NCBI GenBank assembly: GCA_034667725.1
Contig: JAXDQS010000005.1
Location: 64,001-128,000, forward strand
DNA length: 64,000 nt
DNA from: Thermoplasmata archaeon
Lineage (GTDB): Archaea; Thermoplasmatota; E2; JACPAO01; JAHFTW01
Direction: 5' to 3'
Shown: positions 2,957-47,830 of the stretch, piece after piece
Layout of the letters: each line of letters opens with the position of its first letter
Numbering within the stretch: position 1 is the first letter of the stretch
The notes under the pieces: generated by a model
Databases searched by the model: none
Seen by the model: the letters and a program-made list of their open reading frames with translations, nothing else
Told to the model about the DNA's origin: nothing
Position numbers and translations under genes: made by a program

Positions 2957-5221
2957 TCAGTGCATCGCCGTCTGCCCGCCCTTGACCTCGGCCATGTGCG
3001 CCACGCGCCGCTCCAGCAGCGCCTGCGTGCCGATGTCGTGGCGGACGTAGAGGCGGTCGCCGTGGACGTGCTGCAAGCTCGCCTCGCACACGGTGTTGGC
3101 GGCCTCGATGGTGGGGCCCTCGCCCAGCACGGCCAGCGTGCGGCTCGCCATCGTCACCAACGGCCCCGACATGTGCTGCTCAATGGAACCCAAGTAGACA
3201 GCGCCGCCGCTGCGCTTGATGTTGAAGTCGTCCACTTGGATGAACTGCCCCGCCGCCGGGGTGGGGCCGCCGTAGCCCTGCGGCACGACGTACTTGACGA
3301 CGGTGGCGACGCCGCGGAAGCGGGCCTGGTGCTGGGACAGGGTGCCGGTGGCCATGCCTTCCAGGATGCCGAGGTAGTCGGACTGGAGGGTGTGCAGGAC
3401 GTTCATGGCCTCGGGGTCGCCGAAGCGGGCGTTGACCTCGATGATCTTGGGGCCGTCGGCGGTGAGCATGAACTGGCCGTAGATGGTGCCGACGTAGGGC
3501 GTGCCGTCGTTGCGCAGCGCGTCCACGATGCCTTGCAGAATCTGGGCTGCCGCGGAGTAGTCCTCGACCGCCAGGAACGGGAGCAGGCCGTCGGCTTGGG
3601 TGTAGCTGCCCATGCCGCCGGTGTTGGGGCCTTGGTCGCCTTCCAGCAAGCGCTTGTGGTCCTGGACGGCGGGCATCGGCAGCAGGGTCGTGCCGTCGGT
3701 GAACGCCATCAGGGTGAACTCCTCGCCGCGGGCCAGCTCCTCGAACTGGACGGCGCCGCCTTGGGGGCCGAACAGGGTGCGGACGTAGGCCTTGGCCCCT
3801 TCGACGTCGGCGAAGTGGTCGCCATGGACCTGGACGCCCTTGCCGCCGGTCAATCCCACCGGCTTGACGGCCCAGACGGGGCCGTGCTGGTCGAGGAAGG
3901 CGAGCGCCTCCTCCAGCCGGTTGAAAGGGTGGAACGCGAGCGAGCCCGGCAGGCCGTGACGGCGCATCAGGTCGCGCATGAACACCTTGGAGGTCTCGAT
4001 GCGCGCGGCCGCCTGGGTGGGCGAGGCCACCGCGATGCCGGCGGCCCGGAGCCCGTCGGTCACGCCCGCCTCGAGCGGGGTCTCGGGGCCGACGACGGCG
4101 AGGTGGATCTTCTGCATCCGGGCCCAGGCCACGATGCCGGCGACGTCGCGGTCGTCGAGGATCTTGAACCCGGTGGCGGACTTGGCGATGCCCGGGTTGC
4201 GGTGCTTCATCACCACGAACACTTGGGCGCGTTGGCTGCGGCGGATGGCGAGCGCCATGGCGTGCTCGCGCGCGCCCGACCCGACCAGGAGCACGTTCAG
4301 GACCTGGCCCTTCGGCAGCGGCGCGGCGTGGACCTGGCTCGGCGGCGCGGTGGCCGGCGAGGACCGGGGAGCCACGGTTGGCGACGACGGGCGGGCGCTC
4401 GGGTCGTGGATCTCGGTCTTGCCCGAGGGCCGCGCCGCGGGCGGCAGCGCGGAGGCCGCCATCGGCGTGATGCCGCCGTAGAGCTTCTGCTGGCCGGCCG
4501 GCGGCGCGGCCGTGCCGGCGGCGCCGGCGGGCGGCAGGCCGAGCGACGAGCCGAAGCCGGCCGTGGCCGACGGCTTCTGGTAGGAGATGGAGTCGGAGGT
4601 GTCCTTCTGCGGCAAGTCCCACGGGGCGCGCTTGACGGTGTTGTACTCGGCGAAGTCCTGGCCTTCTTTGCCTTGCTTGGCGGCGCCCAGGCTTCCGCCC
4701 GTGCGCGGCGCGCCGGCCTTCGGCTCCGGCGGCAGCACGCGCTTCGGGGCGGTGATGACCTCGGTGTCGTCGTCGGCCTCGACGGTGGGGCCTGCGGGTT
4801 CGGCGGCCTTCTTGGCGACCGCGGCGATGCCGTCCTCGACGCCGGGGGCGAGGTTCTCCTTGCGGCCGCTCGGGGTCGTCCAGCCGACGGCGGAGTCCCA
4901 GACCTCGGCGTCCTCCTCGACCGACTTGGGGGCCTGGCGGCGGAACTCGGCGTCCGACGCGCCGGCGGGCTCGCCCTTCGGGTTCTCGGAGGTCGGGCCG
5001 CCCTTCTTGGGGCGCGGGCTGCCGGGCAGCTCCATCGTGCCGTCGGCGGCGTGGGCGGGCGGCTGGGTGGCCGGGGCGCCGGCGGCCTTCTTGGTGGAGG
5101 TGTAGATTTCGGCGCCGTCCGGGGCGCGGGCGGCCTCGGCCTTGGCGCGCTCCGCGGCGGCCTTCGTCTTGGGGCTGGTGTACTCCTCCCAGCCGTCGCC
5201 GCCGGTGATGCCGGCGCTCAT
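2957..5221 (-). CDS. purD: Phosphoribosylamine--glycine ligase with ~305-aa low-complexity N-terminal extension
   Basis: VLLVGSGAREHA, VGPETPL, QDHKRLLEGDQGPNTGGMGSY, EVNARFGDPE. Long start overlaps the pyrE stop (ATGA). Confidence 0.95.
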   Translation of the reverse strand: MSAGITGGDGWEEYTSPKTKAAAERAKAEAARAPDGAEIYTSTKKAAGAPATQPPAHAADGTMELPGSPRPKKGGPTSENPKGEPAGASDAEFRRQAPKSVEEDAEVWDSAVGWTTPSGRKENLAPGVEDGIAAVAKKAAEPAGPTVEADDDTEVITAPKRVLPPEPKAGAPRTGGSLGAAKQGKEGQDFAEYNTVKRAPWDLPQKDTSDSISYQKPSATAGFGSSLGLPPAGAAGTAAPPAGQQKLYGGITPMAASALPPAARPSGKTEIHDPSARPSSPTVAPRSSPATAPPSQVHAAPLPKGQVLNVLLVGSGAREHAMALAIRRSQRAQVFVVMKHRNPGIAKSATGFKILDDRDVAGIVAWARMQKIHLAVVGPETPLEAGVTDGLRAAGIAVASPTQAAARIETSKVFMRDLMRRHGLPGSLAFHPFNRLEEALAFLDQHGPVWAVKPVGLTGGKGVQVHGDHFADVEGAKAYVRTLFGPQGGAVQFEELARGEEFTLMAFTDGTTLLPMPAVQDHKRLLEGDQGPNTGGMGSYTQADGLLPFLAVEDYSAAAQILQGIVDALRNDGTPYVGTIYGQFMLTADGPKIIEVNARFGDPEAMNVLHTLQSDYLGILEGMATGTLSQHQARFRGVATVVKYVVPQGYGGPTPAAGQFIQVDDFNIKRSGGAVYLGSIEQHMSGPLVTMASRTLAVLGEGPTIEAANTVCEASLQHVHGDRLYVRHDIGTQALLERRVAHMAEVKGGQTAMH

Positions 5222-5772
5222 GCCAGCGCCCCCAGCGCCTTGCGGGCCTCGGGCGTCTGCAAGAGCTGCGAGACGCGGGCCAGCGGGTGGAGATGCACCT
5301 GGAGGTTGGCGAGCGCCTGCAGGCCGCCGGCCTCGCGGTCCACCACGACGCAGGCGTGCGCCACCTGGGCGCCAGCCTCCCGCAGGACCTGGACGGCCTC
5401 GACGGTGCTGCCGCCCGAGGTGGTGACGTCCTCGACCACGAAGACCCGCAGCCGGGCCGGGTCGCGGCCCTCGATGCGCTTGCCGGTGCCGTGCTTGCGC
5501 TCGCCCTTCCGGATGATGAGCATCGGCAGGCCGGACTCCAGGCTCACGGCGGTGGCGAGCGGGACGGCGCCCAGCTCCATGCCGGCGACGGCGTCGAACG
5601 GGCCGTGCTCACGGGCCACTTCGGCCATGCGGCGCCCGATGACCCGGAGGGTCGCGGGGTCCGTCATGGCGGCCTTCACGTCCACGTAGTACTTCGACTT
5701 GGCACCGGAGGTCAGGGTGAAGTCGCCGAACCGCACAGCGCCGCACGCCAAGAGCGCCTGGGCCACGTCCAT
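5218..5772 (-). CDS. pyrE: Orotate phosphoribosyltransferase
   Basis: FGDFTLTSGAKSKYYVD, IRKGERKHGT, VVEDVTTSGGS PRPP loop. Confidence 0.95.
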   Translation of the reverse strand: MDVAQALLACGAVRFGDFTLTSGAKSKYYVDVKAAMTDPATLRVIGRRMAEVAREHGPFDAVAGMELGAVPLATAVSLESGLPMLIIRKGERKHGTGKRIEGRDPARLRVFVVEDVTTSGGSTVEAVQVLREAGAQVAHACVVVDREAGGLQALANLQVHLHPLARVSQLLQTPEARKALGALA

Positions 5773-5794
5773 GGAGGCATCCAGGAGGGCGCAC

Positions 5795-5800
5795 GATAAA
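5795..5800 (-). promoter_or_regulatory. Putative TATA box (TTTATC) for a leaderless pyrE-purD transcript
   Basis: AT-rich hexamer 23-28 bp upstream of the ATG at 5772; the same spacing recurs at several genes in the window. Confidence 0.5.
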
Positions 5801-5815
5801 GCGGCTCCCCTTTCG

Positions 5816-6580
5816 CTACGCGGCGAGGTAGGTGGCGGCATGGCCGGCGGTGCCGCAGTCGACGAAGTGGGCGTAGGCCGCGCCCTCGGGCACGTCGCCC
5901 GTGACGATGGCGGGGCTGGTCGAGACGAAGTCGCCGCCCTCGACGCGCATGCCGTCGGCGTCGTAGAAGTCGATGGCGACGAACAGCGCGCCGTCGAGGT
6001 CGCCGAAGTCGGCGGTGAACGGCAGGGCGATGGTGGCCTGGTCGATGGCGAGCTCGGCGTACAGGACGCCGGCGGCGGGCGAGCCGGGGATCATGGCGTC
6101 GTAGGGGTCGCCGCAGCCGTAGACGCCGTTGTCCCAGCTCACGGAGGCGGACTGGGACGGGCCGACGACGCCTTGGGGCAGCGCCTTGACGGGGAAGGTG
6201 CGGTTGGCCTGCTTGTCGCCGTCGGAGACGGTGGCGCGGACGGTGAAGTTGCCCGCGCTGGCGAAGGTGTGGCTGAAGGTGGCGGGCAGGGTGCTGCCGG
6301 TCTTGGCGGCGGCGCCGTCGCCGGTCTCCACGGTCCAGGTCAGGGGCTTGCCTTCGGGGTCGCGGGCGTCGAGCGTGAAGTTGACCAGCAGCGGGACGTT
6401 GCCGCCGGCGGTCGAGCCGGTGAAGGTCAGGGTGGGCGCCTTGTTGGCGGCGGGCGGGCCCGTGGTGGTGGGGCTGGTGCCGGAGGTGGTGGTGTCGGAG
6501 GCGCCTGCGTCGTCGCCGGAGCAGCCGGACAGCAGGGACAGGAGCAGGAGGGCCAGGAGGCCGAAGGCGGTGGGTTTCAT
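5816..6580 (-). CDS. PKD-domain lipoprotein (paralog 3)
   Basis: LSGC lipobox, Thr/Ser linker, PLLVNFTLDARDPEG...WTVETGDG...HTFASAGNFTV. Confidence 0.85.
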   Translation of the reverse strand: MKPTAFGLLALLLLSLLSGCSGDDAGASDTTTSGTSPTTTGPPAANKAPTLTFTGSTAGGNVPLLVNFTLDARDPEGKPLTWTVETGDGAAAKTGSTLPATFSHTFASAGNFTVRATVSDGDKQANRTFPVKALPQGVVGPSQSASVSWDNGVYGCGDPYDAMIPGSPAAGVLYAELAIDQATIALPFTADFGDLDGALFVAIDFYDADGMRVEGGDFVSTSPAIVTGDVPEGAAYAHFVDCGTAGHAATYLAA

Positions 6581-7242
6581 GGTGGACCTACGGGAGGGGA
6601 CAGGACGAGCTGGAAGTCGGCGGCGCCGGCCGGGACGGGACAGACCGCGACGCTGTCGGCGCCGGCGGGGATGGTGCCTTCGGCGCCCATGGTGGCAAGC
6701 AGCGTTTCGCCGTCCCACCACTCCGTGGCGAGGGTCGCCTGGGGCGTCGTGGTGGTGGCCTGGAAGGCCCAGGTCCCCGACACGGCCGGGTCGAACCGGA
6801 CGTAGAGCTCAGGGTCGGCGACGAAGCACGCGGCGACCCCGGCCTGGACGCCCACGCCCGAGAACGTCTGGGGCTCGCCGCCGACGGGAGGCGGGGCCGA
6901 CACGAGCACGCGGACGGTCTGGTTGACGGTGGCCTGGCCGTCGCCCAGGACGGCGGTGACGTTGTAGTCGCCGGGCGCCGCGAACGTGTGCGCCACGGTG
7001 GCGGGCAGGCCCGAGCCCGTCTGGGGCGGCGCGCCGGGCACCTGGACGGTCCATTGGAGCGTGCCGTTCTCGGGGTCGCTGCCGCCGAGGGTGAAGTTCA
7101 CCTGCAGCGGCGCCACGCCGGCGGCCGTGTCGGCGGCGAACGCCAGGACGGGCGGCTGGTTGGGCACGGCCGGCGGGGCGTCGTCTTGCGCGCAGCCTGC
7201 AAGCAGGGCGGCAAGGACGATGGCGCCGGCCTGGAGCCTCAC
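6577..7242 (-). CDS. PKD-domain lipoprotein (paralog 2)
   Basis: GTG start, LAGC lipobox, PLQVNFTLGGSDPE...HTFAAPGDYNV. Confidence 0.85.
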   Translation of the reverse strand: MRLQAGAIVLAALLAGCAQDDAPPAVPNQPPVLAFAADTAAGVAPLQVNFTLGGSDPENGTLQWTVQVPGAPPQTGSGLPATVAHTFAAPGDYNVTAVLGDGQATVNQTVRVLVSAPPPVGGEPQTFSGVGVQAGVAACFVADPELYVRFDPAVSGTWAFQATTTTPQATLATEWWDGETLLATMGAEGTIPAGADSVAVCPVPAGAADFQLVLSPPVGPP

Positions 7243-7252
7243 GCGCCCACCC

Positions 7253-8101
7253 CTACGCGACGATCTTGCTGCCCGACTGGTAGGTGACCTCGATGTTGGC
7301 GCCGCCGGTCGAGAACATGTACCCGAAGTCCGATCCCGGAGGGACGACACCCTCGATGACGCCGTAGCCGTCGGCGGTGAAGGTGCCGGCGTACTCCGAG
7401 CAGTCGGAGAGGTTGAAGAAGATGGTCCAGTCGACGACGCCCGCGGTGGAGGCGTCCGTGATGGTCGCCTTGAACGGCAGGCCGATGGTGGCCGGGTCGG
7501 TGGTGAAGGTGTCGTGCGTGACGCCGGCGCCGGGGCCGGGCTCGCAGTTCAGGAACTCGGGGAAGGTGCCCGCGTCGAGGGAGCCGCCGACCCACGCCAG
7601 GTTGATCTCTTGGCCGGGGCCCTCGGAGCCGGGGCCGGTGGCGGGCAGCACCGCGATGACGACGGTCTTGTTGACGTTGTTGTTGCCGTCGGTGACGACC
7701 GCCTTGGCGGTGTGGTTGCCGACGACGGTGTAGTTGTGCGAGAACTTGCTCGGCAGCGTGGTGCCTGACATGGGAGGGCTGCCGTCGCCGAGGTCCACGC
7801 TCCAGGAGATCGACTCGCCCTCGGGGTCCTTGCCGTCGATGGTGAAGTTGACCAAGAGGGGCGCCTGGCCGCTCACGACGGAGGGCAGGAACGTGATGGT
7901 GGGCGCCGGGTCGACGCCGCCGGGCCCGGTGCCGGTGCCCGTGGTGCCCGTGCCCTTGGTGGTCGTGGTCGTCGTCTTGCCGGTGGTCCCGCCGCCGGAG
8001 GTGCCGGTGCCGGAGGTCGAGGACGAGGTGCCGTCGCCCGAGTCGGAGGAGCAGCCGGCAAGCAGGAGGGCCGCGACCAGCGCGGCGACCAAGAGCTTCA
8101 T
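7253..8101 (-). CDS. PKD-domain lipoprotein (paralog 1)
   Basis: LAGC lipobox, G/T-rich linker, PLLVNFTIDGKDPEG...WSVDLGDG. Confidence 0.85.
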   Translation of the reverse strand: MKLLVAALVAALLLAGCSSDSGDGTSSSTSGTGTSGGGTTGKTTTTTTKGTGTTGTGTGPGGVDPAPTITFLPSVVSGQAPLLVNFTIDGKDPEGESISWSVDLGDGSPPMSGTTLPSKFSHNYTVVGNHTAKAVVTDGNNNVNKTVVIAVLPATGPGSEGPGQEINLAWVGGSLDAGTFPEFLNCEPGPGAGVTHDTFTTDPATIGLPFKATITDASTAGVVDWTIFFNLSDCSEYAGTFTADGYGVIEGVVPPGSDFGYMFSTGGANIEVTYQSGSKIVA

Positions 8102-8126
8102 GGGGCTCGGGGGGGAGCCACGGCCC

Positions 8127-8387
8127 TTAATCCTTGTGCTGGCCACCGATCGCCCGCGCAGCCACGTCCGCCAGGCGCACGAGGCCATGCAGCGCGGCGC
8201 GCAGCGTCGACAGGTCCGAGGCCGCGACCTCCAGCACCACCGCCGCGCCGTCGGCCGCCACCGAGGCGGCGGCCCCCTCGGGGCCGTCCGCCGCCTCGGG
8301 GGCGAGGGCCGCGGCGACGGCCTGGGCGGCCGCCGCGTCGCGGGCGGCCAGGCGCAGGCTGGCGCGGTGCGTCGGGGGGACGATCAC
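8127..8387 (-). CDS. pcc1: KEOPS complex subunit Pcc1
   Basis: ALAPE...LEVAASDLSTLRAALHGLVRL; canonical position after rpl37ae-rpoP. Confidence 0.85.
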   Translation of the reverse strand: MIVPPTHRASLRLAARDAAAAQAVAAALAPEAADGPEGAAASVAADGAAVVLEVAASDLSTLRAALHGLVRLADVAARAIGGQHKD

Positions 8388-8521
8388 TCGGAGCGCAGCG
8401 ACTTGGCGACGGTCGGGCGTTCCTTGTAGAATAACTTCGAGCCGCAGTAGGGGCAGCGGATGCCGATGTTCTGGGCGTTGAACTCGACGCGCTTCTTGCA
8501 GACGCCGCACTTGTAGGCCAT
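8384..8521 (-). CDS. rpoP: RNA polymerase subunit P (Rpo12)
   Basis: Not in the ORF track; manual translation MAYKCGVCKKRVEFNAQNIGIRCPYCGSKLFYKERPTVAKSLRSE, a zinc ribbon. Confidence 0.93.
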   Translation of the reverse strand: MAYKCGVCKKRVEFNAQNIGIRCPYCGSKLFYKERPTVAKSLRSE

Positions 8522-8527
8522 GCCGCC

Positions 8528-8827
8528 TTACTCCTGGGCGGGGGCGGTGGACGGGGTCGCCAGCTTGTCCTGCACGGCGCGCAGGGCCTTGTCCGCGCCC
8601 TGGCCGGCGCCGGTCTGGGGGCTGTAGGCGCCGCCGGCGAAGGTGAAGCCGCACTTCTGGCACTCCCAGATGGCGGTGTGGATGCGGTAGACCGAGACGG
8701 CGCCGCAGCGGCTGCAGGCGTGGGCGCCCTTCTGGACCTTCTCGATGTTGCCCACGGTGCGGCGGTGCAAGGCGCCGTAGCGGGGACCGAAGCGGCCTGC
8801 GGATCCGACCTTCTTGGTGTGCGACAT
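8528..8827 (-). CDS. rpl37ae: 50S ribosomal protein L37ae (eL43)
   Basis: [15 protein letters not shown], CxxC...[15 protein letters not shown]. Confidence 0.96.
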
Positions 8828-8972
8828 GGATGGGTCTCCAGGGTGGCGACAGGGATGGCCCTGTCCCCGGTGCAGGGCGGGCCACGCCGGTTTCGATTTA
8901 AGCCCTTTGGCGAGAGGGCGAGGCTGGGCACCGAGCGAGCGGTCCAAGTGGCGGGCGGGGGGTCGGGGCCTC

Positions 8973-9314
8973 ATGCAGCCGCTCACGGTCCTCATCGACG
9001 GCGAATGCGCCCTGTGCAAGCGGGCCGCCGCGTACGGCATGGGCAAGGGCCGGCCGGGGGCGCTGCGGTTCGTGGCCAACACCGACCCGGAGGCCGATGC
9101 CATCCTGGAGCGGTTCCGCCTGCTGCACATCCGCGAGGAGACCATGGTGGCGTTCGACGGAAACCGCGCCTACACGCACTCGGCGGCGGCCGTGCAGGTC
9201 GCGAAGCGGCTGCGGTGGCCGTACCGGGCGCAGGCGGCGGTGTGGCTCGTGCCCAAGCCGGTGCGGGACGTGGGGTATCGGTGGGTGGCGAGGCGGCGGA
9301 AGCGGACGGACTAG
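8973..9314 (+). CDS. DCC1-like thiol-disulfide oxidoreductase (DUF393)
   Basis: IDGECALC and [12 protein letters not shown] motifs. Confidence 0.85.
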
Positions 9315-9315
9315 G

Positions 9316-10668
9316 TCAGTCCAGCAGCACCGCGTCCGTCCTGCTTCCCCGCAACTGGGAATCCAACTCTCGCCCATCGACGGCGTCCACGTCCACGTAG
9401 CCGTTGTCGCCGTGCAACCTCCAAGCCGGGCGGAAGAACACGCCGAGGTGGCGCAGCCGGACCTGCTCGGGCTTGGGCTCGACCTTGCGGCGTTCGGTGT
9501 AGAACAGCGAGTTGTTGGCGTCGGGCACGCGGACCTCGACGGTGCGGGTGTGGCGGGCGACGACGTGGGCCAGGGCGGCGGGATTGGCGCGTTCTTCCTG
9601 GATGCGCAGCACGCGCTCGGTGGACTGGTACGGGTGGTCGGGGGCGAGCAGGCTGGGGCCGTCCGGGTTGCATTGGTCGGGGTCCACTTCGAGCGCGGAC
9701 TTGTCGGAGCCGTGGACCTGGACGCGGCCGTCGCGGGTGTCGCAGGAGATTTTGCCCTCCTGGAGCACGTCGACCTCGTAGTCGAACAGGTGGACGGGGT
9801 GCAGCAACACTTCCGTCATCCGCACCGAGAACAGGCGGTCCTTGACCTTGCGCTTGGCGTCCTCGAGGGTGACGCGGGCCGGCAGCACCGGCCGGGTCGG
9901 CGCCTTGCGCGCGGGCTTCGCCGGCGCGGCGGCGACCGTCGGCGGGCTCCACGGCGCCGCGAAGGGGGTGGCGGGAGCGGCAGCGGGGGCGGGTGCCATC
10001 GGGGGCGCCATCGGGGCGGGCATGGGCATGGCGATCACGGGGGCCGGGGCGGCGACGGGGGCAGCCATGGCCACGGGCGGTGTGGCCAGATGGGGGAACG
10101 GCGCGATGGGGTCCGGCTCCGGCATGGGGGGCAGCTCGGGGATGTCGAGGTCGAGGCGGGGGCTGGCGGCGGTGGGTTCGGCGACCTCCAAGATGGCCTC
10201 CATGGCGTAGGCCGGCTCGGGGTCGGGCGCGGCGGCGCGGAACGCTTCGGGCAGCAGCTCCTCGAAGGTCTCGGCCACGCGGTGGGGCTGTTCCAACGGC
10301 ATCTCGGGGAGCGGGTCGCCGAGGGCTTCGGCGAGGCGGGTCTCGCCCAGGAGGCGCACCAGGGTGGCGCGGTCCCACAGCACGACGTGGCCGGCGGGCT
10401 CGGCGGCCTCCTCGCCCAGGTGCAGCAGGACGCCGCGGTCGGCGCCGACGTCCGCGACGCACCGGGCGAACTCGTCGATGGCGTCGCGCTCCAGGGGGGA
10501 GCCGTCGAGGTGGCCGGACACCACGATGGTGCCCGACTCGGACTCGGCGAGGATGGGGACGGTGTAGACGGCGCCGCTGCGGCCTTCGAGCGCGGCCTCC
10601 GGCGAAACGGTGTACCCGTGCAGGCCAAAGAGCCCGCTCAGGAGGTCGGCGACAGTGCCCATGTGCAT
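9316..10668 (-). CDS. Mrr-like (restriction-endonuclease fold, degenerate) domain + Pro/Ala linker + uncharacterised C-terminal domain
   Basis: LFGLHGYTV...LEGRSGAVY...ADRGVLL...VVLWDRATLVRLLG; no D...ExK catalytic motif visible. Confidence 0.65.
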   Translation of the reverse strand: MHMGTVADLLSGLFGLHGYTVSPEAALEGRSGAVYTVPILAESESGTIVVSGHLDGSPLERDAIDEFARCVADVGADRGVLLHLGEEAAEPAGHVVLWDRATLVRLLGETRLAEALGDPLPEMPLEQPHRVAETFEELLPEAFRAAAPDPEPAYAMEAILEVAEPTAASPRLDLDIPELPPMPEPDPIAPFPHLATPPVAMAAPVAAPAPVIAMPMPAPMAPPMAPAPAAAPATPFAAPWSPPTVAAAPAKPARKAPTRPVLPARVTLEDAKRKVKDRLFSVRMTEVLLHPVHLFDYEVDVLQEGKISCDTRDGRVQVHGSDKSALEVDPDQCNPDGPSLLAPDHPYQSTERVLRIQEERANPAALAHVVARHTRTVEVRVPDANNSLFYTERRKVEPKPEQVRLRHLGVFFRPAWRLHGDNGYVDVDAVDGRELDSQLRGSRTDAVLLD

Positions 10669-10758
10669 CCCGTCGCCTCGACCGGCTCCATCGGAAATGA
10701 ACCCTTCGAGTCGGTTTCGTCCGGCAAACTCCATCCCCATGGCCCGGGTCCAGCGGCC

Positions 10759-11622: not shown

Positions 11623-11628
11623 GGGCCG

Positions 11629-39776: not shown

Positions 39777-40111
39777 GCGACGGCCGCCTCCTTTGCCACG
39801 ACGGCCAGGATGTCGGCGCCGTAGGTCTCGGCCTTGGTGGCGCCGACGCCGCGGACGGCGCGCAGTTCGTCGAGGCTGGCGGGCCGGGCCTCCTCGATGG
39901 CGCGCAGCACGGCGTCGGTGGCGATGACGTAGGGCGGCAGCTGCTTGGCGCGGGCCTGCTCGGAGCGCCAGCGGCGCAGCGCTTCGAACACGGGGCCGCC
40001 GCCGGCGCGGACGCCGCTTGCGCGCAAGGCGTCCTTGAACGCGGCGAGGGCGGTCTCGAGGTTGGCGGTGGCTTGCGCCAGGTCGGGCTTCGGAATGCCA
40101 TCGGGAGGCAT
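39773..40111 (-). CDS. Stand-alone HRDC domain protein
   Basis: FEALRRWRSEQA...PPYVIATDAVL...VRGVGATKAETYGADIL. Confidence 0.85.
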   Translation of the reverse strand: MPPDGIPKPDLAQATANLETALAAFKDALRASGVRAGGGPVFEALRRWRSEQARAKQLPPYVIATDAVLRAIEEARPASLDELRAVRGVGATKAETYGADILAVVAKEAAVA

Positions 40112-40321
40112 GAAGGGCAGGAAGCGCGGGGCGGCCTTGGAGGGGCTCGGACGGGCCTTGGCCTGCAAGAAAAGGAGATGGACCCTGGGGCGCGCTGGCC
40201 CCAGGGGGGTTGCGTAACACCTTGCCGCAGGGAGCGGCACTCCAAACCTTGGCGCTCCTGGTTCATGACGGTTGCCCGCGGGAGGCGCGGCCGGTCGGCT
40301 TGAAAACGGCGCCTTCGTGGC

Positions 40322-41119
40322 GTGGGCGTGGGCGCGCGCCTCGGCCAGCATTTCCTCCGGGACGAGCGCGTGCTGGACGCCGTTGTGGCCGCGGCGGGGC
40401 TCCAGCAGGGCCAACGGGTGCTGGAGATCGGCCCCGGGCCGGGCAACCTGACGGAGCGGCTGGCCGCCGCCGTCGGGCCGTCCGGGCGGGTCGTGGCCAT
40501 CGAGGCGGACCCGATGCTGGCGCGGGCGTTGCAGGGCCGGTGGCCGCAAGTGGACCTGGTGGTCGGCGACGCCGTGCAGACGGACCTGGCGGCCCTCGGC
40601 CCGTTCGACCGCATCGTCGCCAACCTGCCTTACCTGATCAGCGGCCCCATCACGGTCGCGTTCCTGGCGCTGGTGCGGAATCCCGCCACCCGCTGGGGCC
40701 GGGCCGTGCTGATGTACCAGGCCGAGTTCGCCGAGCGCCTGCTGGCCCCGCCCGGCTCCGGCGCGTACGGCCGCCTCACGGTCCACGCCTCCCGCTGGGT
40801 CGAGGTCCGCCACGTCCGCGACGTGCCGCCCGGCGCCTTCGACCCGCCGCCCGCCGTCGACTCGATGGTGGTGGCCCTGGTGCCGCATCCCGCCGCGCCG
40901 TTCGCCGTCGCCGACGAGCGCCTGTGGACCGCGGTGGTGGACGGGTCGTTCCAGCAGCGCCGCAAGCAGCTGCGCAACACGGTCCCGCCCGCCGTCGCCG
41001 CGCTTGGGGTCTCGAAGGAGAAAGCCTTGGCCGCGCTGGAGGCGATGGGGTTGTCCTCCGAACGCCCCGAGCAGGTGGCGCCGGCGCGGTTCGCCGAGCT
41101 GGTGGGGCGGCTGGCGTGA
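40322..41119 (+). CDS. rsmA: 16S rRNA adenine dimethyltransferase
   Basis: LGQHFL, LEIGPGPG, ANLPY, QAEFAERL, FQQRRKQLRN. Confidence 0.95.
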   Translation: MGVGARLGQHFLRDERVLDAVVAAAGLQQGQRVLEIGPGPGNLTERLAAAVGPSGRVVAIEADPMLARALQGRWPQVDLVVGDAVQTDLAALGPFDRIVANLPYLISGPITVAFLALVRNPATRWGRAVLMYQAEFAERLLAPPGSGAYGRLTVHASRWVEVRHVRDVPPGAFDPPPAVDSMVVALVPHPAAPFAVADERLWTAVVDGSFQQRRKQLRNTVPPAVAALGVSKEKALAALEAMGLSSERPEQVAPARFAELVGRLA

Positions 41120-41721
41120 AGGTCCCCACGCCCGACGGCGGCACGCTGTTCATCGCGACCCATCCCGAGGTCTACGTCCCAAGCGACGACACCCTGCTGC
41201 TGGCCCGCGCCGTCCACGCCGAGGCCCGGCCGGGCCAAGCCTTCCTGGAGGTCGGCTGCGGCGCCGGCTACGTGGCGCTCGTGGCCGCCCGCGCGGGGGC
41301 CCGCGTGACGGGCACCGACCTGAACCCGCACGCCGTCGAGGTGGCCCGCCACAACGCCCGCGAGAACGGCCTGCGGGCCACGTTCGTCGCGGCGGACCTG
41401 CTGGCGGGCCTCGCCGGGCCGTTCGACCTGGTGGCGTTCAACCCGCCCTACCTGCCCACGGCGCCGGACGAGGTCGTGCCCGGCCCGCTGAACCTTGCGT
41501 TCGACGGCGGCCTCGACGGCAACGGCACGGTGCTGCGCTTCGCCGGCCAGCTTGGGGCGCTGCGGCCGCGGCCCGCCACCGTCCTAGTGGTGCACAGCAG
41601 CCTGTCGGACCCGCGCCCGCTGGCCGACGCCATGGCGGCGCTCGGCTACAGCATGGACGTGGCCATCTCGGAGCGGCTCGCCTTCGAGGAGCTGACGGTG
41701 CGCCGCTTCAGGCTGGCCTGA
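41116..41721 (+). CDS. HemK2/N6AMT1-like protein methyltransferase
   Basis: VYVPSDDTLLL, LEVGCGAG, FNPPYLP, DGGLDG. Confidence 0.9.
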   Translation: MKVPTPDGGTLFIATHPEVYVPSDDTLLLARAVHAEARPGQAFLEVGCGAGYVALVAARAGARVTGTDLNPHAVEVARHNARENGLRATFVAADLLAGLAGPFDLVAFNPPYLPTAPDEVVPGPLNLAFDGGLDGNGTVLRFAGQLGALRPRPATVLVVHSSLSDPRPLADAMAALGYSMDVAISERLAFEELTVRRFRLA

Positions 41722-42629
41722 GCGGCAAGGCCCGCGAGCACCAGCCAGAGCGGGGCCGCCGGGCTGTCCTTCGGCGCGACGGCGGGGCTGGCCGGGCCCG
41801 GAGCGGGCGTCGTCGCGGCCGGGGTGGTGCGTGCGGGCTCCTCGGCGGCGGGGGCCGGCGCCGGCTCGCTCGTGGGCGGCGCCTGGGTCTCGGCCGGCGG
41901 GGGCGGGGCCTGGGCGACGGCGGCCGCCAAGGCGGGCAGCAGCAGGTCGGCGGCGTAGCCGGCGTCGGGCATCCGGTCCCAGCCGTCGGGCGCGAAGCCC
42001 GCCTGCGTGGGGCGCGGCACGCCGCTGCACGGCGACAGCACCGTGCCGTAGGTCGGGACGGCCGGCAGCTCGCTCTGGGTCTGGCAGGCCTGCGGCGAGT
42101 CGTAGGCGAACGCCCGCGTGACCCGGTAGCCCGTCGCGGTGGTCTCGGGCATGTTCAGGATGGCGTGGTCGCGCGGGACCGAGAACAGGACCACGTTCCC
42201 GTCCACCGTGACGGTGGGCGCGCCGTCGAAGGCCAGCACGTCCTCGTCGTCGATCCAGCCCATCTGGGCGCGCAGGGCGGGATCCTCGGCGCCATGCCGG
42301 TACACCACGTAGGAGGTGTTGTAGCCGGCCTGGGCGGGGGCGGGCGCGCCGTCGTCGCGCTCGACCCGGAACTCGACGCGGAACGACACGGTGGCGCTGG
42401 CGCAGCCGTCCGGGCAGGCGGACTGGTCGGCGGGCGGCTCGGGGAGGGCCTTCACCTGGAGCGCGACCTGGAGGTGGGTGGCGTTGGCGGCGAGCCAGAG
42501 CTTCTGGAGGTCCATGCTGTCGTGGCCGGCGTCGTCGTCGGGGTCGGTGGCGTTGGGGTCCCCGTCGGGGGCGGCAAGGGCTGCTGGCAGGGCAAGCAGG
42601 AGGCCCAAGAGCAGGGCGATGCGGCGCAT
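41646..42629 (-). CDS. Secreted protein with a C-terminal DSPxxPL-TM-basic anchor
   Basis: Signal peptide; DPDDDAG..MDL; Pro/Thr linker; KDSPAAPLWLVLAGLAAQASLKRR. Confidence 0.75.
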   Translation of the reverse strand: MRRIALLLGLLLALPAALAAPDGDPNATDPDDDAGHDSMDLQKLWLAANATHLQVALQVKALPEPPADQSACPDGCASATVSFRVEFRVERDDGAPAPAQAGYNTSYVVYRHGAEDPALRAQMGWIDDEDVLAFDGAPTVTVDGNVVLFSVPRDHAILNMPETTATGYRVTRAFAYDSPQACQTQSELPAVPTYGTVLSPCSGVPRPTQAGFAPDGWDRMPDAGYAADLLLPALAAAVAQAPPPPAETQAPPTSEPAPAPAAEEPARTTPAATTPAPGPASPAVAPKDSPAAPLWLVLAGLAAQASLKRRTVSSSKASRSEMATSML

Positions 42630-42703
42630 GGCAGGGACGCGGCGCGGGGAGTATTTGTGGAGCCTGGCCGCTTCGCTGGAAGGTTCGGGGAAGCGACAAG
42701 AGC

Positions 42704-42736
42704 GGAAGGAGGGAAGGAGGGAGGAAGGAGAAGGGG
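42704..42736 (-). terminator. Pyrimidine-rich putative terminator
   Basis: C/T tract right after the stop at 42742. Confidence 0.45.
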
Positions 42737-42741
42737 CCGGG

Positions 42742-43980
42742 CTACGCGAGGCGGCGGCGGGTCACGAAGACCATCGCGGCCAGCATCGTGACCAGCTCGA
42801 CCAGCGGCATGTCCGGCGAGTCCTGGCTGGACTGGGTGCCGCCGTCCGTGATGTCGAACGACGCCGTCGTGCTGGTGTCGCTGCCGCCGGTGCCGCCGGT
42901 CCCGCCCGTGCCGCCGGTGCCGCCCGGGCCGCCGGTGCCCGACACGGTCTTGGGGGCCACGTTGAGCTTCATGACGCCCTTGAAGTTGGTGTACTTCAGG
43001 GTGATGTGGAACAGGCCGGCCTTGGCGGGGACGCTCTGGGGCGTGGTCGAGGTGGCGTTCTTGTTGAGGGTGCCCGAGGCCAGCGTCTTGTTGGTGCTGT
43101 CCTTGATGGTGTAGGTCACGGTGCCGTTCGCGACCGTCGCGTTGTAGGACACGTCGACCACGGTGGCCGTCGAGGTCCAGTTGTAGACGTAGGTGTCCGA
43201 CGACGGGCTGGTGAAGGTGTGCGTGATCGCGACCGCGCTGCCGGTGGCGTTCTGGTAGATGGTCTTGGTGCCGGTCGGGACCACGGTGCCGGACTGGTAG
43301 GTGAAGGTCACGGCCGACGCGTAGTCGGGGCTGTCGTAGTAGAACAGCCAGGTGGGGCCGCCGAGGACGGTGTCGACCTCGACCTCGACCGTCAGCTTGG
43401 AGGTGGCGGGGACCACCAGGTTGCCGGAGGGCGACAGCACGACGCCGAGGTCCGCGCTGGAGGCGTCGGGCGTCTGGTCGTCGATGAACTGGTTGATGGC
43501 CACCTGGGCGTCCTTGCACTGCGGCGCGTTGGCGGGCAGGTCAAGGTCGTTGGTGAGGCGGGAGCCGACGGTGGCGCCGTCCAGCTTGACCGTCACGAGG
43601 ACGCGGGGGACGAAGGCCGACTGGGTGGTCTCGCTGACGCAGTAGTGGACGGTGAAGGCGTCGGTCTCGGGGCCGGAGGTGCTGAAGTCGCCGTCGCCGA
43701 TCTCGCCGGACTGGGCGAAGCCGTCCTTCATGGGGAAGACGACGGGGTTCTCGACGATGCCGGCGCCGGCGCTGTGGGAGACGATGATGCGAGGCTCGCT
43801 GCCCGAGGGGGCCGTGGCGTCCAGCCAGGTGTCGCCCGCCGCGGCGGTGTTGTCGAACACCGGCTCGGTGCCGTGGAAGTACAGCGTCATGGCCGTGCCG
43901 GCTTGGGCCGTGGCCGTCGGGACAGGTGCGGCCGCCAAGGCGGCCAGGACAAGCATGGAAGCAACCAGCGTTCCTCGCAT
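42742..43980 (-). CDS. Secreted surface glycoprotein with a C-terminal sorting-like signal
   Basis: Signal peptide; several N-x-T sequons; GGT repeats; QDSPDMPLVELVTMLAAMVFVTRRRLA. Confidence 0.85.
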   Translation of the reverse strand: MRGTLVASMLVLAALAAAPVPTATAQAGTAMTLYFHGTEPVFDNTAAAGDTWLDATAPSGSEPRIIVSHSAGAGIVENPVVFPMKDGFAQSGEIGDGDFSTSGPETDAFTVHYCVSETTQSAFVPRVLVTVKLDGATVGSRLTNDLDLPANAPQCKDAQVAINQFIDDQTPDASSADLGVVLSPSGNLVVPATSKLTVEVEVDTVLGGPTWLFYYDSPDYASAVTFTYQSGTVVPTGTKTIYQNATGSAVAITHTFTSPSSDTYVYNWTSTATVVDVSYNATVANGTVTYTIKDSTNKTLASGTLNKNATSTTPQSVPAKAGLFHITLKYTNFKGVMKLNVAPKTVSGTGGPGGTGGTGGTGGTGGSDTSTTASFDITDGGTQSSQDSPDMPLVELVTMLAAMVFVTRRRLA

Positions 43981-44038
43981 GGGCCATCGACCAACCCTCG
44001 GTGCTGATAGACGTTGCGTCGCGGCGGCCGCCGCCCGA

Positions 44039-45199
44039 TCACACCGTCAGGCGGTGCTGCACGACCACGCTGGCCACCGCGAAGGCCGCCGCCCCGATCC
44101 GGGCCTCGCCCTGCGCCTGGGTCATGCGCGGCCCGGTGATGGCAAGGCCCACCGGCCGGTCGAACCGCAGCGCCAGGTCCACCAGGGCGCGGGCGGTGGC
44201 GTCGGCGATGACGACGTCGTGGCCGGTCTCGCCCTGGATGATGCAGCCGATCACCACGACGGCGTCCACGTCGGCGCGCTGCAGCAGGCGCTGGACGGCA
44301 AGCGGCGTGTCGAAGGCGCCCGGCACCTTGGCGTGCGCCACGACGACGGCGCCCAGCCGCTCGGCCTCCTCCTTGGCGGCCGCCGCCATGGCCGACGTGA
44401 TGCCGAGGTTGAACTCGGCCTGCACGAGGCCGATGCGGCAGGCCTTGCCCGGGTCGGGGGCGGGGCGGGGCGCGTCGCTCGTGTGCGGCTGGCGCGCGGC
44501 GGCGGCCTTGGGCGGGCCCGGCAAGGCGGGCGGGACCTCGGGGATCGGGGCGAACAGGTCGTCGTCCTCGTGGTGCACGACCGTCTGGAGCGGCCCGTTG
44601 GCCGTCGGGTTGGACATGACGGCGCCCCGGCTGGCGGCGGCGACGTCGCTGGCGGCGTCCAGGAGGGCCTGGTCGTCCTCCACCTGGGCTTCCTGGGTGG
44701 CCGGGCGGTCGGGGCGGGGCGGCAGCACGCCGAAGCGGCGCGGGGTGGCGACCTGGATGTCGGGCTCCTTCCACTTGGCCAGGATGTCCTGGGCCTTGGG
44801 CTGGGGCGGCGGGTCGGCACGCAGGCCGCGCCCGGTGCGCGGGTGGACGTCGAGGTCGGGCCGGCGGTACTCCTCGAACAGGGCGTCCTCCGTGACCTTG
44901 ACGGCAGGCGCGCCCTCCGCGGGCTGGGCGGGCTGCTGGCCCGGCAGCGCCGGCACCGGCCAGTCGCGCGCCGCCGCTGGCTGGGCGCGGGGAATCTCGG
45001 GCACGCCGAGGCCCTTGGCGAGGTTGGCCTTGGTGAGCGGGACGTTGGGGTCCGGCGGCGGGAACTGGTAGCCGGCCGCGCGCAAGCCCTTGGCGCGAGG
45101 GACGGGGTTGCCCTGCTCGTCGGTGCGCGGCGGGGCGGTGTACTCCTCGAACTCCTCGGTCGCATCGACCTTCGGCTCGTTCGGCTCCGCCATGGGCAT
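44039..45199 (-). CDS. ribH: 6,7-dimethyl-8-ribityllumazine synthase with ~250-aa low-complexity N-terminal extension
   Basis: RIGLVQAEFN, VPGAFDTPL, GCIIQGETGHD, PVGLAITGP in the last ~135 aa. Confidence 0.92.
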   Translation of the reverse strand: MPMAEPNEPKVDATEEFEEYTAPPRTDEQGNPVPRAKGLRAAGYQFPPPDPNVPLTKANLAKGLGVPEIPRAQPAAARDWPVPALPGQQPAQPAEGAPAVKVTEDALFEEYRRPDLDVHPRTGRGLRADPPPQPKAQDILAKWKEPDIQVATPRRFGVLPPRPDRPATQEAQVEDDQALLDAASDVAAASRGAVMSNPTANGPLQTVVHHEDDDLFAPIPEVPPALPGPPKAAAARQPHTSDAPRPAPDPGKACRIGLVQAEFNLGITSAMAAAAKEEAERLGAVVVAHAKVPGAFDTPLAVQRLLQRADVDAVVVIGCIIQGETGHDVVIADATARALVDLALRFDRPVGLAITGPRMTQAQGEARIGAAAFAVASVVVQHRLTV

Positions 45200-45254
45200 C
45201 CCAGTTGCGGGGCACGGTTTCCACTAATGAATGCTTTTGGACCGGGCCATGGAC

Positions 45255-47123
45255 CTAATTCAGGCCCTCGGCGGTGCCCAGGCGCACGACGATGGTCGGG
45301 CCGGTCGGCAGCCAGAGGTCGCAGCGGAACGTGGCGCCGGGCAAGAGGGGCGGGAAGGCGCACGTGTCACGGGCCATCGCCGTCTCGCCGGTCTCGTCCG
45401 CCTGCATGAAGGCCAAGAGCTCGCCGCGCAGCGTGTCGCGGCGGCCGGTGTTGGCGACCTCGACCGAGAGGTGCTGCACGCCGTTCTCGTCCTCGACGGG
45501 GTCCAGGTCGAGGGTCAGCTTGGTGCGCGAGGAGACGTCGACCGGCTCGGGGCGGGGGCGCTTGGGGTCGGGCAGCCCGAGGGCGGGGCCGCCGGGCGTG
45601 GGCTCGGCCTGCCAGTAGCGGACGTTCTGGAGGCTGACGGTGCCGCCGGGCGAGGTGCCGTTGAGGGCGACGCCGACGGAGGTGTGGCGGTCGCCGCGCA
45701 GCAGGATGACGTCCTGGCCGAGCGCGTCGAGCAGGGAGGCCAGCAGGACCGCGTTGTCCTCGGAGTCGCCGCCGTCGGCCGCCAGCGTCATGGCGGGGCT
45801 GCGCAGGAAGCGGTCGTCGGGGCGCGAGGCCGGGAAGCCGTCCTTGAGGGACTGGACGAACGAGAGCGCGAGGGCCGCCAGCTCGGGGTCGGTCATGCCT
45901 TCCGCGTCCGCGACCTCGAGGAGCTGGTCGGCGACCTGGCCGACGACGGTGGCGGTGCGGGCGTCGTGGATCAAGAGGTCGTAGGCCGGGCCCAAGGCGT
46001 TGCGCGGGATGATGCGGGCCTCGTCGCGGCGCAGCAAGGCGTCGGGGATGCTGGCCGTCACCTTGCGGGCGGTGCCGGCGTGGGTCCAGGAGTAGCTCTT
46101 CTCGACGACGTTCGGGTCCTCGTCGATCACGGGCGGGATGGCCTCGTCGGCCAGGTAGTCCTGGAGGAGCGTGACGTTGGTGCGGCTCCAGTTGTCGTAG
46201 ACCCGGAACTGGCTGGCCTCGCCGTAGGTGACGAACCAGACGTCGCCGTCGTCGACGATGCCGGCCTTGCCGAGGTCGACGACCTCGATGGTGCCGGCGG
46301 CGGTCTCGGAGCGGGTGGGCATGGGGACGCTCTGGGCGACGCTGCCGTCGGTGGCCAGGAAGCGGAAGCGCAGGTCGCTGTAGCGGCTGCCGGGGCTGAT
46401 GGGCTGGATGCGCAGCGCGTGGGTGTCGCCGACCACGATCTCCACGTAGCGCAGGAAGGCTTCCGGCTTGGAGGCCACGGGGACGTCGGGCAGGGCCGGC
46501 TTGGCGCTGTATTTGACGGACCCGCTGGTCTCGGAGGCGCTCTCGGTGAAGGTGGCCTCCAGGAAGGTGCCGTTGTCGCCAAAGCGCCAGCGCTCGCGGA
46601 TGCCGCCCGATTCGCGCAGCAGCACGTGGACGGTCTTGCCGGCCTCCTGCACGCAGGTGGCGGCGAACAGGTGGCTCGGGGTGCCGAAGAAGCTGCTGGC
46701 GTCGCTGTCGGCCAGCCCGCCCAGGGCGTAGTCGTGCAGGCGCTGGGAGAACGCCGGGTCGGCCAGGTCGCGGTGGCGGGTGGCGTTGCCGGTGGCGTTG
46801 ACGGAGTAGAACTCGTTGCCGTAGACGAAGTCGGTGCCGTTCTGGTAGGCCCAGCTGAACGCCTCGCGGGCCGGGTCGGCGGCGTAGACGTTGGTGGTGT
46901 TCTTGCCGGCCACGGTGCTGCGCACCTCGAGGGTCCCGCTGGCGAACCGCAGCACGTCGAGGCGGTCCTGCAGCGCGTTCTCGGCCAGGCAGGCCGGCGG
47001 CGCGGCGGTGGTGCTGCTGGACGTGGTGGTGGACGACGAGGCGGTGCTCGAGTCGGGGCCGTCGCCTGAGCAGCCGGCCAGAAGCAGGAGCGCCAGGACG
47101 GCCGTCGTGGGCAGGATGCGCAC
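45255..47123 (-). CDS. Lipoprotein with a transglutaminase-like domain (Cys replaced by Ser)
   Basis: LAGC; LSFVQSL, GDSEDNAVLLASLL, HTSVGV, YWQAEPT. Confidence 0.75.
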   Translation of the reverse strand: MRILPTTAVLALLLLAGCSGDGPDSSTASSSTTTSSSTTAAPPACLAENALQDRLDVLRFASGTLEVRSTVAGKNTTNVYAADPAREAFSWAYQNGTDFVYGNEFYSVNATGNATRHRDLADPAFSQRLHDYALGGLADSDASSFFGTPSHLFAATCVQEAGKTVHVLLRESGGIRERWRFGDNGTFLEATFTESASETSGSVKYSAKPALPDVPVASKPEAFLRYVEIVVGDTHALRIQPISPGSRYSDLRFRFLATDGSVAQSVPMPTRSETAAGTIEVVDLGKAGIVDDGDVWFVTYGEASQFRVYDNWSRTNVTLLQDYLADEAIPPVIDEDPNVVEKSYSWTHAGTARKVTASIPDALLRRDEARIIPRNALGPAYDLLIHDARTATVVGQVADQLLEVADAEGMTDPELAALALSFVQSLKDGFPASRPDDRFLRSPAMTLAADGGDSEDNAVLLASLLDALGQDVILLRGDRHTSVGVALNGTSPGGTVSLQNVRYWQAEPTPGGPALGLPDPKRPRPEPVDVSSRTKLTLDLDPVEDENGVQHLSVEVANTGRRDTLRGELLAFMQADETGETAMARDTCAFPPLLPGATFRCDLWLPTGPTIVVRLGTAEGLN

Positions 47124-47185
47124 GGAGGCACCACAACGGGGTGGTTTTTAGGGTTGGCCAAGCAAAAGCGGCCGGCCGGGGGCGC

Positions 47186-47830
47186 TCAGGCCTTCCCGGG
47201 GCGCAGGTGGGAGCCGTCGCCGCGCCTCGGGTCGGCGGGGCCGGCGTCCTGGAAGCCCTGGCGCTGGCCGGTGCCGGCGCGGGCCACCAGCTCGTGCGGC
47301 CGCTCCACCAGCCAGACGGCGTTGACGGCGTGCTCGGCGGTGCGGTTGCGGGCCACCTCGATGAGCTCGGCGTCGCTCTTGGCCTCGTCCATGTGGACGA
47401 AGACCTCCAGCACGTGCGTGCTCGTCATGAGCTGCGCCTGCGCGATCGCCATCGAGGCCTCGTGGCCGCACTGCTTGTCGATGGGCTCCGGGCCGACCAT
47501 GCCGCAGGCGACGACGATGGCGCAGCCGTCGCGCTCGACCATGCGCTTGGCGGCCACGGCGAGATCCTTGAAGCCAGGCACGGTGCGGCGCAGGATGCGC
47601 GCCTCGGGGATGCCCTGGCCGCGCAGCGCCTCGACCGCCACGGCGCCCATGTCCACGGTGCTGAAGGTGGTGTCCACGACGCCGTAGCGCACCCCGGCGG
47701 GCGGCTTGGACGTCGTCTCCTCGTAGCCGAGCGAGCGCGACTGCGCCGGCTGCGGCCGCTCGGCGCCGCGGTTCACGATGACCTTGGGCTGGGCGCGGTC
47801 CGGGTCGTCGGGTCTCCAGATGAGGCTCAT
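47186..47830 (-). CDS. ribC: Archaeal riboflavin synthase with ~45-aa N-terminal extension
   Basis: GVVDTTFSTVDMG, TVPGFKDLAVA, LEVFVHMDE, GQRQG. Confidence 0.92.
   Translation of the reverse strand: MSLIWRPDDPDRAQPKVIVNRGAERPQPAQSRSLGYEETTSKPPAGVRYGVVDTTFSTVDMGAVAVEALRGQGIPEARILRRTVPGFKDLAVAAKRMVERDGCAIVVACGMVGPEPIDKQCGHEASMAIAQAQLMTSTHVLEVFVHMDEAKSDAELIEVARNRTAEHAVNAVWLVERPHELVARAGTGQRQGFQDAGPADPRRGDGSHLRPGKA

Follow-up and report, generated by a model that had tools for sequence, protein, structure and literature searches.

Why should enzymes of purine and flavin synthesis carry low-complexity N-terminal tails in one archaeal genome, and do the short similar strings within these tails amount to a single signal? 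This question is raised by a stretch of 64,000 nucleotides from a Thermoplasmata archaeon (the window; positions 64,001 to 128,000 of contig JAXDQS010000005.1, C5 in our numbering), which belongs to a genome of 2.32 Mb in 26 contigs that is 90% complete and has a GC content of about 71%. A preliminary description of the window had singled out three enzymes, the GAR synthetase PurD, the lumazine synthase RibH and the riboflavin synthase RibC, and had proposed that a motif common to their tails forms one system. We find that the three tails are genuine translated N-terminal extensions, that each is specific to its enzyme and that they originated at different times. The part worth following is the tail of RibH (and, in a sister family, that of RibC) together with its motif, and not a three-enzyme tag. 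Below, f1 denotes the archaeon's own family, f2 the sister family, f3 a further family of the same order and g1 the archaeon's own genus; coordinates are positions in the window unless a contig is named.

Three ordinary enzymes with translated extensions

All three genes lie on the minus strand. The purD gene (2957-5221) encodes 754 residues, a 308-residue N-terminal tail followed by a GAR synthetase in which the domains GARS_N, GARS_A and GARS_C stand in order and which matches TIGR00877 at residues 308-735 with 391.8 bits (cut-off 288). RibH is encoded at 44039-45199 and has 386 residues; its tail covers residues 1-253 (44441-45199) and its core begins at about residue 254, matches TIGR00114 at residues 255-371 with 105.9 bits (cut-off 84.6) and PF00885 (DMRL_synthase) with 103.4 bits, and is modelled by AlphaFold2 as alternating strand and helix elements with a predicted local distance difference test score (pLDDT) above 90. 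The ribC gene (47186-47830) encodes an archaeal riboflavin synthase of 214 residues, which matches TIGR01506 (ribC_arch) at residues 50-198 with 175.7 bits (cut-off 100.55) and has an N-terminal extension at 47696-47830. The catalytic cores of all three proteins are therefore ordinary, each scoring above its equivalog cut-off. Every string that the preliminary description had quoted from the three proteins is present on the minus strand where it had been placed. Its statement that all three carry long tails holds for PurD, with 308 residues, and for RibH, with 253, and fails for RibC, which has just 45.

In a GC-rich genome long spurious open frames do occur, and many are seen here in other frames, and thus the tails might be untranslated upstream sequence that is open by chance. 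We consider this extremely improbable, and the reading has been dropped, since codon periodicity and the substitution pattern speak otherwise. Computed block by block over 60 codons each, the GC content at third codon positions is 0.95-1.0 all along the tails of PurD and RibH and 0.98 in the first block of RibC, against about 0.5-0.7 at second positions in the tails, and the frame is that of the catalytic parts throughout. A codon-likelihood gene caller trained on the long open reading frames (ORFs) of this genome (2143 genes, 89.6% coding) picks the long forms of all three genes, and public gene calls likewise give the long forms of RibH and of PurD (699-791 residues for the latter). The ribH and ribC starts lie 55-66 nt after the preceding genes, and the ATG of purD overlaps the stop codon of the upstream phosphoribosyltransferase gene (ATGA). 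Between close species, the ratio of nonsynonymous to synonymous substitution rates (dN/dS) is 0.12-0.40 in the PurD and RibH tails (0.15-0.40 in the PurD tail by itself) compared with 0.10-0.32 in the cores; the two tails are conserved at the amino-acid level and under purifying selection. PurD orthologues have no conserved internal start. In the tail-less PurD of other genera the protein starts about five residues ahead of the first strand, with a methionine directly before that strand, and the open frame upstream is arginine-rich, out-of-frame junk unlike the tails, which provides a model of what a spurious extension looks like in this lineage; the longer PurD ORFs found outside the genus (up to 806 residues) are such spurious open frames. 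Neither the PurD nor the RibH tail has a match in Pfam or the PDB.

The RibH tail and its motif

The RibH tail, which is rich in proline, alanine and glutamate, has a net charge of -10 and is predicted to be partly disordered, is an old feature of this Thermoplasmata order. It shows about 60% identity within the genus, is present in nearly all genera of family f1 and occurs again in family f3; no such tail was found in f2, nor in five well-assembled genomes of the other families of the class, where the RibH ORFs have 145-151 residues. All intact RibH N-termini in f1 and f3 contain one to three copies of a motif, [TD][DE][EQ]F[ED][EV][YF]x[RA]P at the N-terminus across the order or, in its short form, [DE]F[ED][EV][YF]xRP, the first copy standing 15-50 residues from the start. 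Examples are TDEFEVYERP, STDEFEVYTRK (family f3) and, from the genome studied here, ATEEFEEYTAPP and ALFEEYRRPD. The aromatic pair of the motif is invariant and lies beside acidic and basic residues, and in most genomes the first copy of the motif is preceded by an amphipathic helix (LDEDALEAMLRRQ-like). Behind the motif follows a linker of 100-350 residues, rich in proline, alanine and glutamate, that cannot be aligned, the whole tails measuring about 150-440 residues. In the present RibH, copy 1 is FEEYTAP (residues 17-23; 45131-45151), this genome's form of the order-wide motif, and copy 2 is FEEYRRP (residues 108-114; 44858-44878), for which the genus consensus is LFEEYQRPDL and which ranks with the best conserved islands in the tail. 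The two copies score 29.7 and 25.7 bits against a position-specific scoring matrix (PSSM) built only from the RibH sequences of other genomes. Further conserved islands are KGLRAAGYQFPP (45056-45091) and LTKANLAKGLGV (45002-45037), also on the minus strand; the AlphaFold2 model of the tail reaches pLDDT 70-78 in this region (45002-45091) and over residues 21-60, with bumps to similar values at about residues 111-140 and a helix at 169-190. Such medium values in the model hint at folding on binding.

The motif is confined to this one protein wherever it was sought at a larger scale. A DNA search for the pattern EFEV[YF]ER in 32 genomes of the family returned 12 sites, compared with none for the reversed control; 11 of these sites fall within ribH tails located by search, and the twelfth, 1.8 kb downstream of ribC, stands where its contig ends, which fits a ribH gene split between contigs. 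A profile of the N-terminal module retrieved 54 matches among 5.8 billion proteins, all of them lumazine synthases or fragments of these; every match with a Pfam domain has that of lumazine synthase, and the remaining four, with no Pfam domain, are short (119-183 residues). A short linear motif is recognised as an island of 3-12 residues that is kept while its flanks diverge and are predicted to be disordered, and the retention of the RibH motif across two families amid unalignable linkers bears this signature. Judged by its sequence pattern, the RibH motif is what is expected of a functional short linear motif, and a RibH-specific one.

In the sister family a comparable tail stands on the other enzyme of the pair. 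Two genera of f2 and three metagenome proteins have a RibC with a tail of 190-260 residues, with a RibH that has no tail; both proteins are tail-less in one more f2 genome, as they are in five genomes of the class that serve as outgroups. Among the genomes examined, a long tail is therefore found on RibH or RibC or on neither, and never on both. The f2 RibC tails open with acidic sequence, contain EF[KE][RP]PKGL once or twice and are marked by regular repeats, for example DGPVEV[VF]KP or LGTPE[VI][QR]FQKG..GGPKPK. We considered these tails as homologues of the RibH or PurD tails and rejected this, the similarity not being significant; no paralogous tails were found in the f2 genomes with a tailed RibC. 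As a separate observation, metagenome proteins of 322-326 residues from another lineage seem to join a lumazine-synthase-like domain and an archaeal-type riboflavin synthase domain in a single chain, as natural fusions.

Two explanations other than docking bear on these data. The extensions might be inert, acting as solubility or spacing "bristles" or representing tolerated start-codon drift at 71% GC with few stop codons, an explanation we regard as somewhat unlikely; that their conserved islands reflect local constraints with no docking function is given a similarly low credence. The lineage is indeed rich in low-complexity tails: 251 of the 2143 predicted proteins have a hydrophobic-poor stretch of at least 60 residues, and long N-terminal ones are found on HisIE, PurL, FtsY, ScpB, aIF5B, two secretion ATPases, an NAD-binding epimerase and a hemerythrin. 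Linker length and sequence also vary freely, and the PurD tail is predicted to be fully disordered. Against inert extensions speak the whole-tail dN/dS well below 1, the holding of a motif of 7-10 residues in two families while its surroundings change, and the exclusive occurrence of this motif in one enzyme family. Moreover, tails of 250-300 residues on metabolic enzymes are rare even in this genome: when contiguous stretches alone are counted, a strict measure that credits PurD with 127 residues, 14 of the 2143 proteins have an N-terminal hydrophobic-poor stretch of at least 100 residues, and a looser segment measure ranks PurD 1-309 first in length among the N-terminal stretches of recognised enzymes. 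If the tails were inert after all, they would be a clean example of GC-rich archaeal genomes growing translated extensions that come under selection.

The other explanation places regulatory marks in the same chain, either autoinhibitory or assembly contacts with the protein's own core or sites of modification or degradation (tyrosine or lysine near acidic residues). The parts of the RibH tail at pLDDT 70-78 in the monomer model, and the invariant aromatic pair flanked by acidic and basic residues, would suit such a role. We find it very doubtful, since a contact within the same chain needs no very long and variable linker, and since in the sister family the tail is on RibC instead of RibH; no link to a kinase, ligase or protease turned up, none having been tested for.

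PurD, RibC and the rest of the genome

The PurD tail (residues 1-308; 4298-5221) is rich in alanine, proline, lysine and glutamate, has a net charge of -2 and is predicted to be disordered, the AlphaFold2 model computed with orthologue alignments having pLDDT 31-61 over residues 1-290. It is limited to one genus, being present, with 40-49% identity, in nine of 12 other genomes of g1 and absent from all 28 genomes searched beyond that genus, and accordingly PurD ORFs have 681-918 residues in the genus compared with mostly about 450-500 elsewhere in the order. Searched against 5.8 billion proteins, the tail gave 18 matches, all PurD, all of 699-791 residues save one partial sequence of 470, and all from MAGs labelled Thermoplasmata or "Candidatus Thermoplasmatota". 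Its most conserved islands are ELPGSPRPK (5006-5032, minus strand), VEEDAEVW (residues 101-108; 4898-4921), TTPSG and DDDTEV, all different from the F[QE]EYxRP site; TEVITAPKR (residues 153-161; 4739-4765), with DDD before it, lies in a strongly conserved island and is where this PurD scores highest with the RibH-derived motif model (8.0 bits). These islands sit in a tail with pLDDT below 50 and so show the same signature of short linear motifs. The PurD tail is thus a younger, genus-level disordered arm that has its own conserved islands along with some RibH-like sites.

Three such sites had been listed in the preliminary description. The first, WEEYTSP (residues 11-17; 5171-5191; 6.7 bits with the RibH-derived PSSM), corresponds in orthologues to W-D-L-Y-V-[NK]-P-K-K, typically WDLYVNPKK, and therefore the aromatic-E-E core that was seen in it is not conserved. 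The second, EIYTSTK (residues 38-44; 5090-5110), corresponds to DGTE[LM]TVNPK or TELYVKPK, and in the third, FAEYNT (residues 190-195; 4637-4654), the genus consensus DF[QE]EY[QV][RK]P recurs in degenerate form with an insertion. This consensus is the PurD site most like the RibH motif; most PurD tails of the genus hold it, and it is near-identical to the second RibH copy in the form LFEEY[QH]RP. PurD also has several sites that follow the looser scheme acid-E-[VLI]-[YTI]-x-x-P-[KR], such as WDLYVNPKK, TELTVNPK and DDDTEVITAPKR.

Does this resemblance make one motif of them? In the 13 genomes of the genus the pattern F[EDQ][EV]Yx[RK]P has 25 matches, compared with three for the control, and these comprise 14 in RibH tails, six in PurD tails, four in folded domains of two other proteins and one out of frame. 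The pattern was composed after both proteins had been viewed, and for this reason the PSSM derived from RibH of other genomes was used as well. Against the shuffles of each tail, P is at most 0.013 for eight of 11 PurD tails and falls to 0.0003 in the best case. The highest-scoring PurD site of the present genome is ADDDTEVITAPK with 8.0 bits (P 0.007 against its own shuffles), followed by GGDGWEEYTSPK (GWEEYTSPK) with 6.7 bits; RibC scores 2.9 (P 0.012), and its orthologues are not significant. Across the whole proteome the PurD scores are at background level and only the two RibH sites stand out. The regular expression of the preliminary description is numerically far enriched, with five matches against 0.3 expected across the proteome and four against 0.0002 in shuffled tails, yet it had been derived from its own four sites, which makes the enrichment circular, and we do not use it as evidence; its one independent match in the proteome lies inside a folded-looking protein. 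A duplication of one tail between PurD and RibH was also considered and rejected, as whole-tail searches with hmmsearch find only the tail searched with and alignment with hhalign is limited to the motif sites. The latter result bears out the earlier remark that the tails cannot otherwise be aligned.

The RibC extension is short and variable, of 25-70 residues in the genus, with an MSLIWKP-like start that is conserved and reads MSLIWRP here (47810-47830). Its site YEETTSK (47705-47725) is common only to two other species, as GYEVL..KP, and the remaining species of the genus have unrelated sequence there; in the genus genomes where RibC was found the site shows neither conservation nor detectable constraint. 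Elsewhere in the family RibC begins with a short helix, and in the outgroups with nothing (ORFs of 153-178 residues). This short helix of RibC outside g1 (LEEIALQWADRQ-like) resembles the N-terminal helix of RibH (LDEDALEAMLRRQ-like), and from their sequences the two may be a matching pair. Conservation in orthologues, which had been anticipated for the motif of all three enzymes, is therefore found for RibH in two families and in part for PurD, and is absent for RibC, where the site is known from only three genomes of the genus.

No further protein of this genome has the motif in a disordered region in our proteome scans, and the expectation that it would be over-represented in disordered termini was not borne out, there being no carriers beyond the named enzymes. 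A general aromatic-acid-x-aromatic pattern is weakly enriched in hydrophobic-poor regions (77 occurrences compared with 57.6 +/- 7.5) under a loose disorder mask that covers one third of the proteome, and a general tag of this kind was set aside for the weakness of the enrichment. The motif is also absent from the other long tails of the genome, which are rich in lysine, arginine and alanine or in proline and alanine. That HisIE, PurL and the epimerase are tailed too, with tails of a different, basic kind, leaves the supposed purine-to-flavin logic of the three enzymes with no specific support.

Taken together, these results make it quite unlikely that PurD, RibH and RibC are all brought to a common partner, or into a condensate or metabolon linking purine and flavin synthesis, by one aromatic-acidic motif. 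Such a tag would explain why the F[QE]EYxRP of PurD in the genus is nearly the same as the second RibH motif, why in the 13 genomes the pattern in a disordered context is limited to RibH and PurD, why a PSSM made from RibH ranks PurD tails over their own shuffles and why hhalign aligns the motif sites and nothing else; the several [DE]-E-[VIL]-[YTI]-x-x-P-[KR] sites would make PurD multivalent. Against this, the RibC site is limited to three species of the genus and its orthologues give no significant score, the PurD tail belongs to one genus and the RibH motif dates much further back, beyond that genus RibH alone carries the motif, the PurD sites of this genome are at background across the proteome, the most conserved PurD islands are different sequences, and no other enzyme of the pathways has the motif. 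Each type of tail is exclusive to its enzyme (54 of 54 matches for the RibH module, 18 of 18 for the PurD tail), and their ages differ, order-level for RibH and genus-level for PurD. Accordingly, the tails do not represent a single common tag. The best reading of the PurD tail is that of a younger, separate tail with similar motifs.

Several features of the surroundings may be recorded here. The genes ribH and ribC belong to a ribB-ribL-ribC-ribH cluster interspersed with a predicted membrane protein, a 66-residue ORF and a secreted DUF7537 protein; in relatives ribC and ribH are adjacent, and here they are separated by a 622-residue lipobox protein with a weak DUF7537 match (45255-47123, minus strand). 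The membrane protein (47897-48463, minus strand), between ribL and ribC, has an N-terminal tail rich in proline, alanine and glutamine and a weak DUF7144 match, and could be a flavin-related transporter or unrelated. Downstream of ribH, 42742-43956 (minus strand) encodes a secreted protein of 404 residues with a glycine/threonine-rich stalk and a C-terminal membrane anchor. Directly upstream of pyrE-purD, at 5816-8101 (minus strand), are three tandem secreted lipobox proteins with a common PKD-like motif, LVNFT[LI]D..DPEG. Among the tailed proteins elsewhere in the genome, PurL (contig C3, 168937-171705) has 922 residues with a lysine/arginine-rich N-terminal extension of about 150, and HisIE (contig C10, 445739-446896) has 385 residues with a tail of about 200 that holds two VHKF[PS]G[RK]R sites and an AWEDFEDDD site. 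A protein of 1285 residues on contig C1 (314006-317863) has a hydrophobic-poor N-terminus of 238 residues ahead of an eCIS core domain (PF13699, 98 bits).

A possible docking tether and its known counterparts

We tentatively favour, at somewhat less than an even chance, a reading of the sequence pattern in which the tail is a docking tether of the lumazine synthase (LS) and riboflavin synthase (RS) pair. The RibH tail would be a flexible tether whose tip motif docks on a protein surface relevant to the last two steps of riboflavin synthesis, and the likeliest target would be the LS or RS oligomers, either through crosslinking among themselves or through association of LS with RS; possibly PurD docks on that surface as well. 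A docking-like motif that has long been kept at the end of an arm of free length would offer a concrete, testable way into the study of how archaea cluster their enzymes. Lumazine synthase serves both as a model of protein cages and as a vaccine scaffold, and if the docking tether is real, nature would have produced in RibH a "hairy" particle of this enzyme. A stronger form, that LS and RS are held together or clustered by a docking motif on a long disordered arm of either, joined in one genus by the PurD arm, we judge unlikely; if true, it would be an archaeal, tail-based answer to substrate channelling, which bacteria solve by caging RS inside LS.

Several findings weigh against the docking tether. 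No partner or binding surface was found, docking being read from the conservation pattern alone, and the RibH of this genome has lost the N-terminal helix found in most of its relatives. The comparison of the PurD and RibH tail profiles with hhalign aligns the motif sites alone, with P values of 0.041, 0.047 and 0.32, whole-tail hidden Markov models of PurD and RibH match only themselves, and orthologues are not independent, so that the sharing between PurD and RibH is effectively one evolutionary event. The f2 RibC tails are not significantly similar to the RibH tails (hhalign P 0.4), and the idea that a tail moved between the paralogues accordingly rests on position, composition and a loose EF..RPKGL resemblance. 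With so many low-complexity tails in the lineage, some may have no specific function. A complex prediction with two RibC cores, two RibH cores and residues 1-130 of the RibH tail scored 0.00, gave no answer and counts neither way.

In comparison with canonical RibH, RibC and PurD, the present proteins have the same ordinary cores, and the canonical ones are without long tails. The closest functional parallel to a docking tether is the cage-localisation signal (CLS) of bacteria such as Aquifex aeolicus and Bacillus subtilis, known for its "heavy riboflavin synthase", in which a C-terminal peptide of RS anchors the enzyme at LS interfaces (PMC13376624). This association has been explained only recently, and the same study predicted no CLS-type complex for any archaeon analysed (PMC13376624). 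The two elements are alike in that a terminal peptide is thought to unite LS and RS and in that it is labile and modular, being gained and lost across lineages. They differ in that the bacterial signal is a C-terminal amphipathic helix on a trimeric RS, unrelated to archaeal RibC, and is bound inside a 60-mer LS cage, whereas the archaeal element, known from sequence, is N-terminal and acidic-aromatic and sits on a disordered linker of 100-350 residues of LS (or, in the sister family, of the LS-like archaeal RS). The RS of this genome is the pentameric-type archaeal RibC, and no C-terminal amphipathic helix on a trimeric RS is present.

A second parallel is the SrpI cysteine desulfurase, a cargo of family 2 encapsulins, whose disordered and poorly conserved N-terminal domain of about 225 residues has two conserved motifs and is dispensable for catalysis (PMC8049743). 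There too a disordered, poorly conserved tail with short conserved motifs stands ahead of a metabolic enzyme; it differs in loading this enzyme into an HK97-fold shell encoded next door, and the motifs are different. Encapsulin cargo was rejected for the present tails, as the 90%-complete genome has no match to PF04454 (Linocin_M18) in a search where controls matched and which did not extend to family 2 shell models; none of the neighbours of ribH, ribC and purD is shell-like. The N-terminal position and acidic-aromatic character of the element, the archaeal type of the RS and the lack of an encapsulin gene in that search place the RibH and RibC tails outside both the bacterial signals and the encapsulin cargo class.

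A third comparison is offered by CsoS2, CcmM and EPYC1, linker proteins with repeated motifs that cluster an oligomeric enzyme, Rubisco. As in these proteins, spaced short motifs on a disordered chain could crosslink a symmetric oligomer: the PurD tail has five to eight related sites, and RibH would display at least five tails per particle. Unlike CsoS2, CcmM and EPYC1, which are separate scaffolds with regular repeats and demonstrated binding, the motifs described here are irregular, are carried by the enzymes themselves and are read from sequence.

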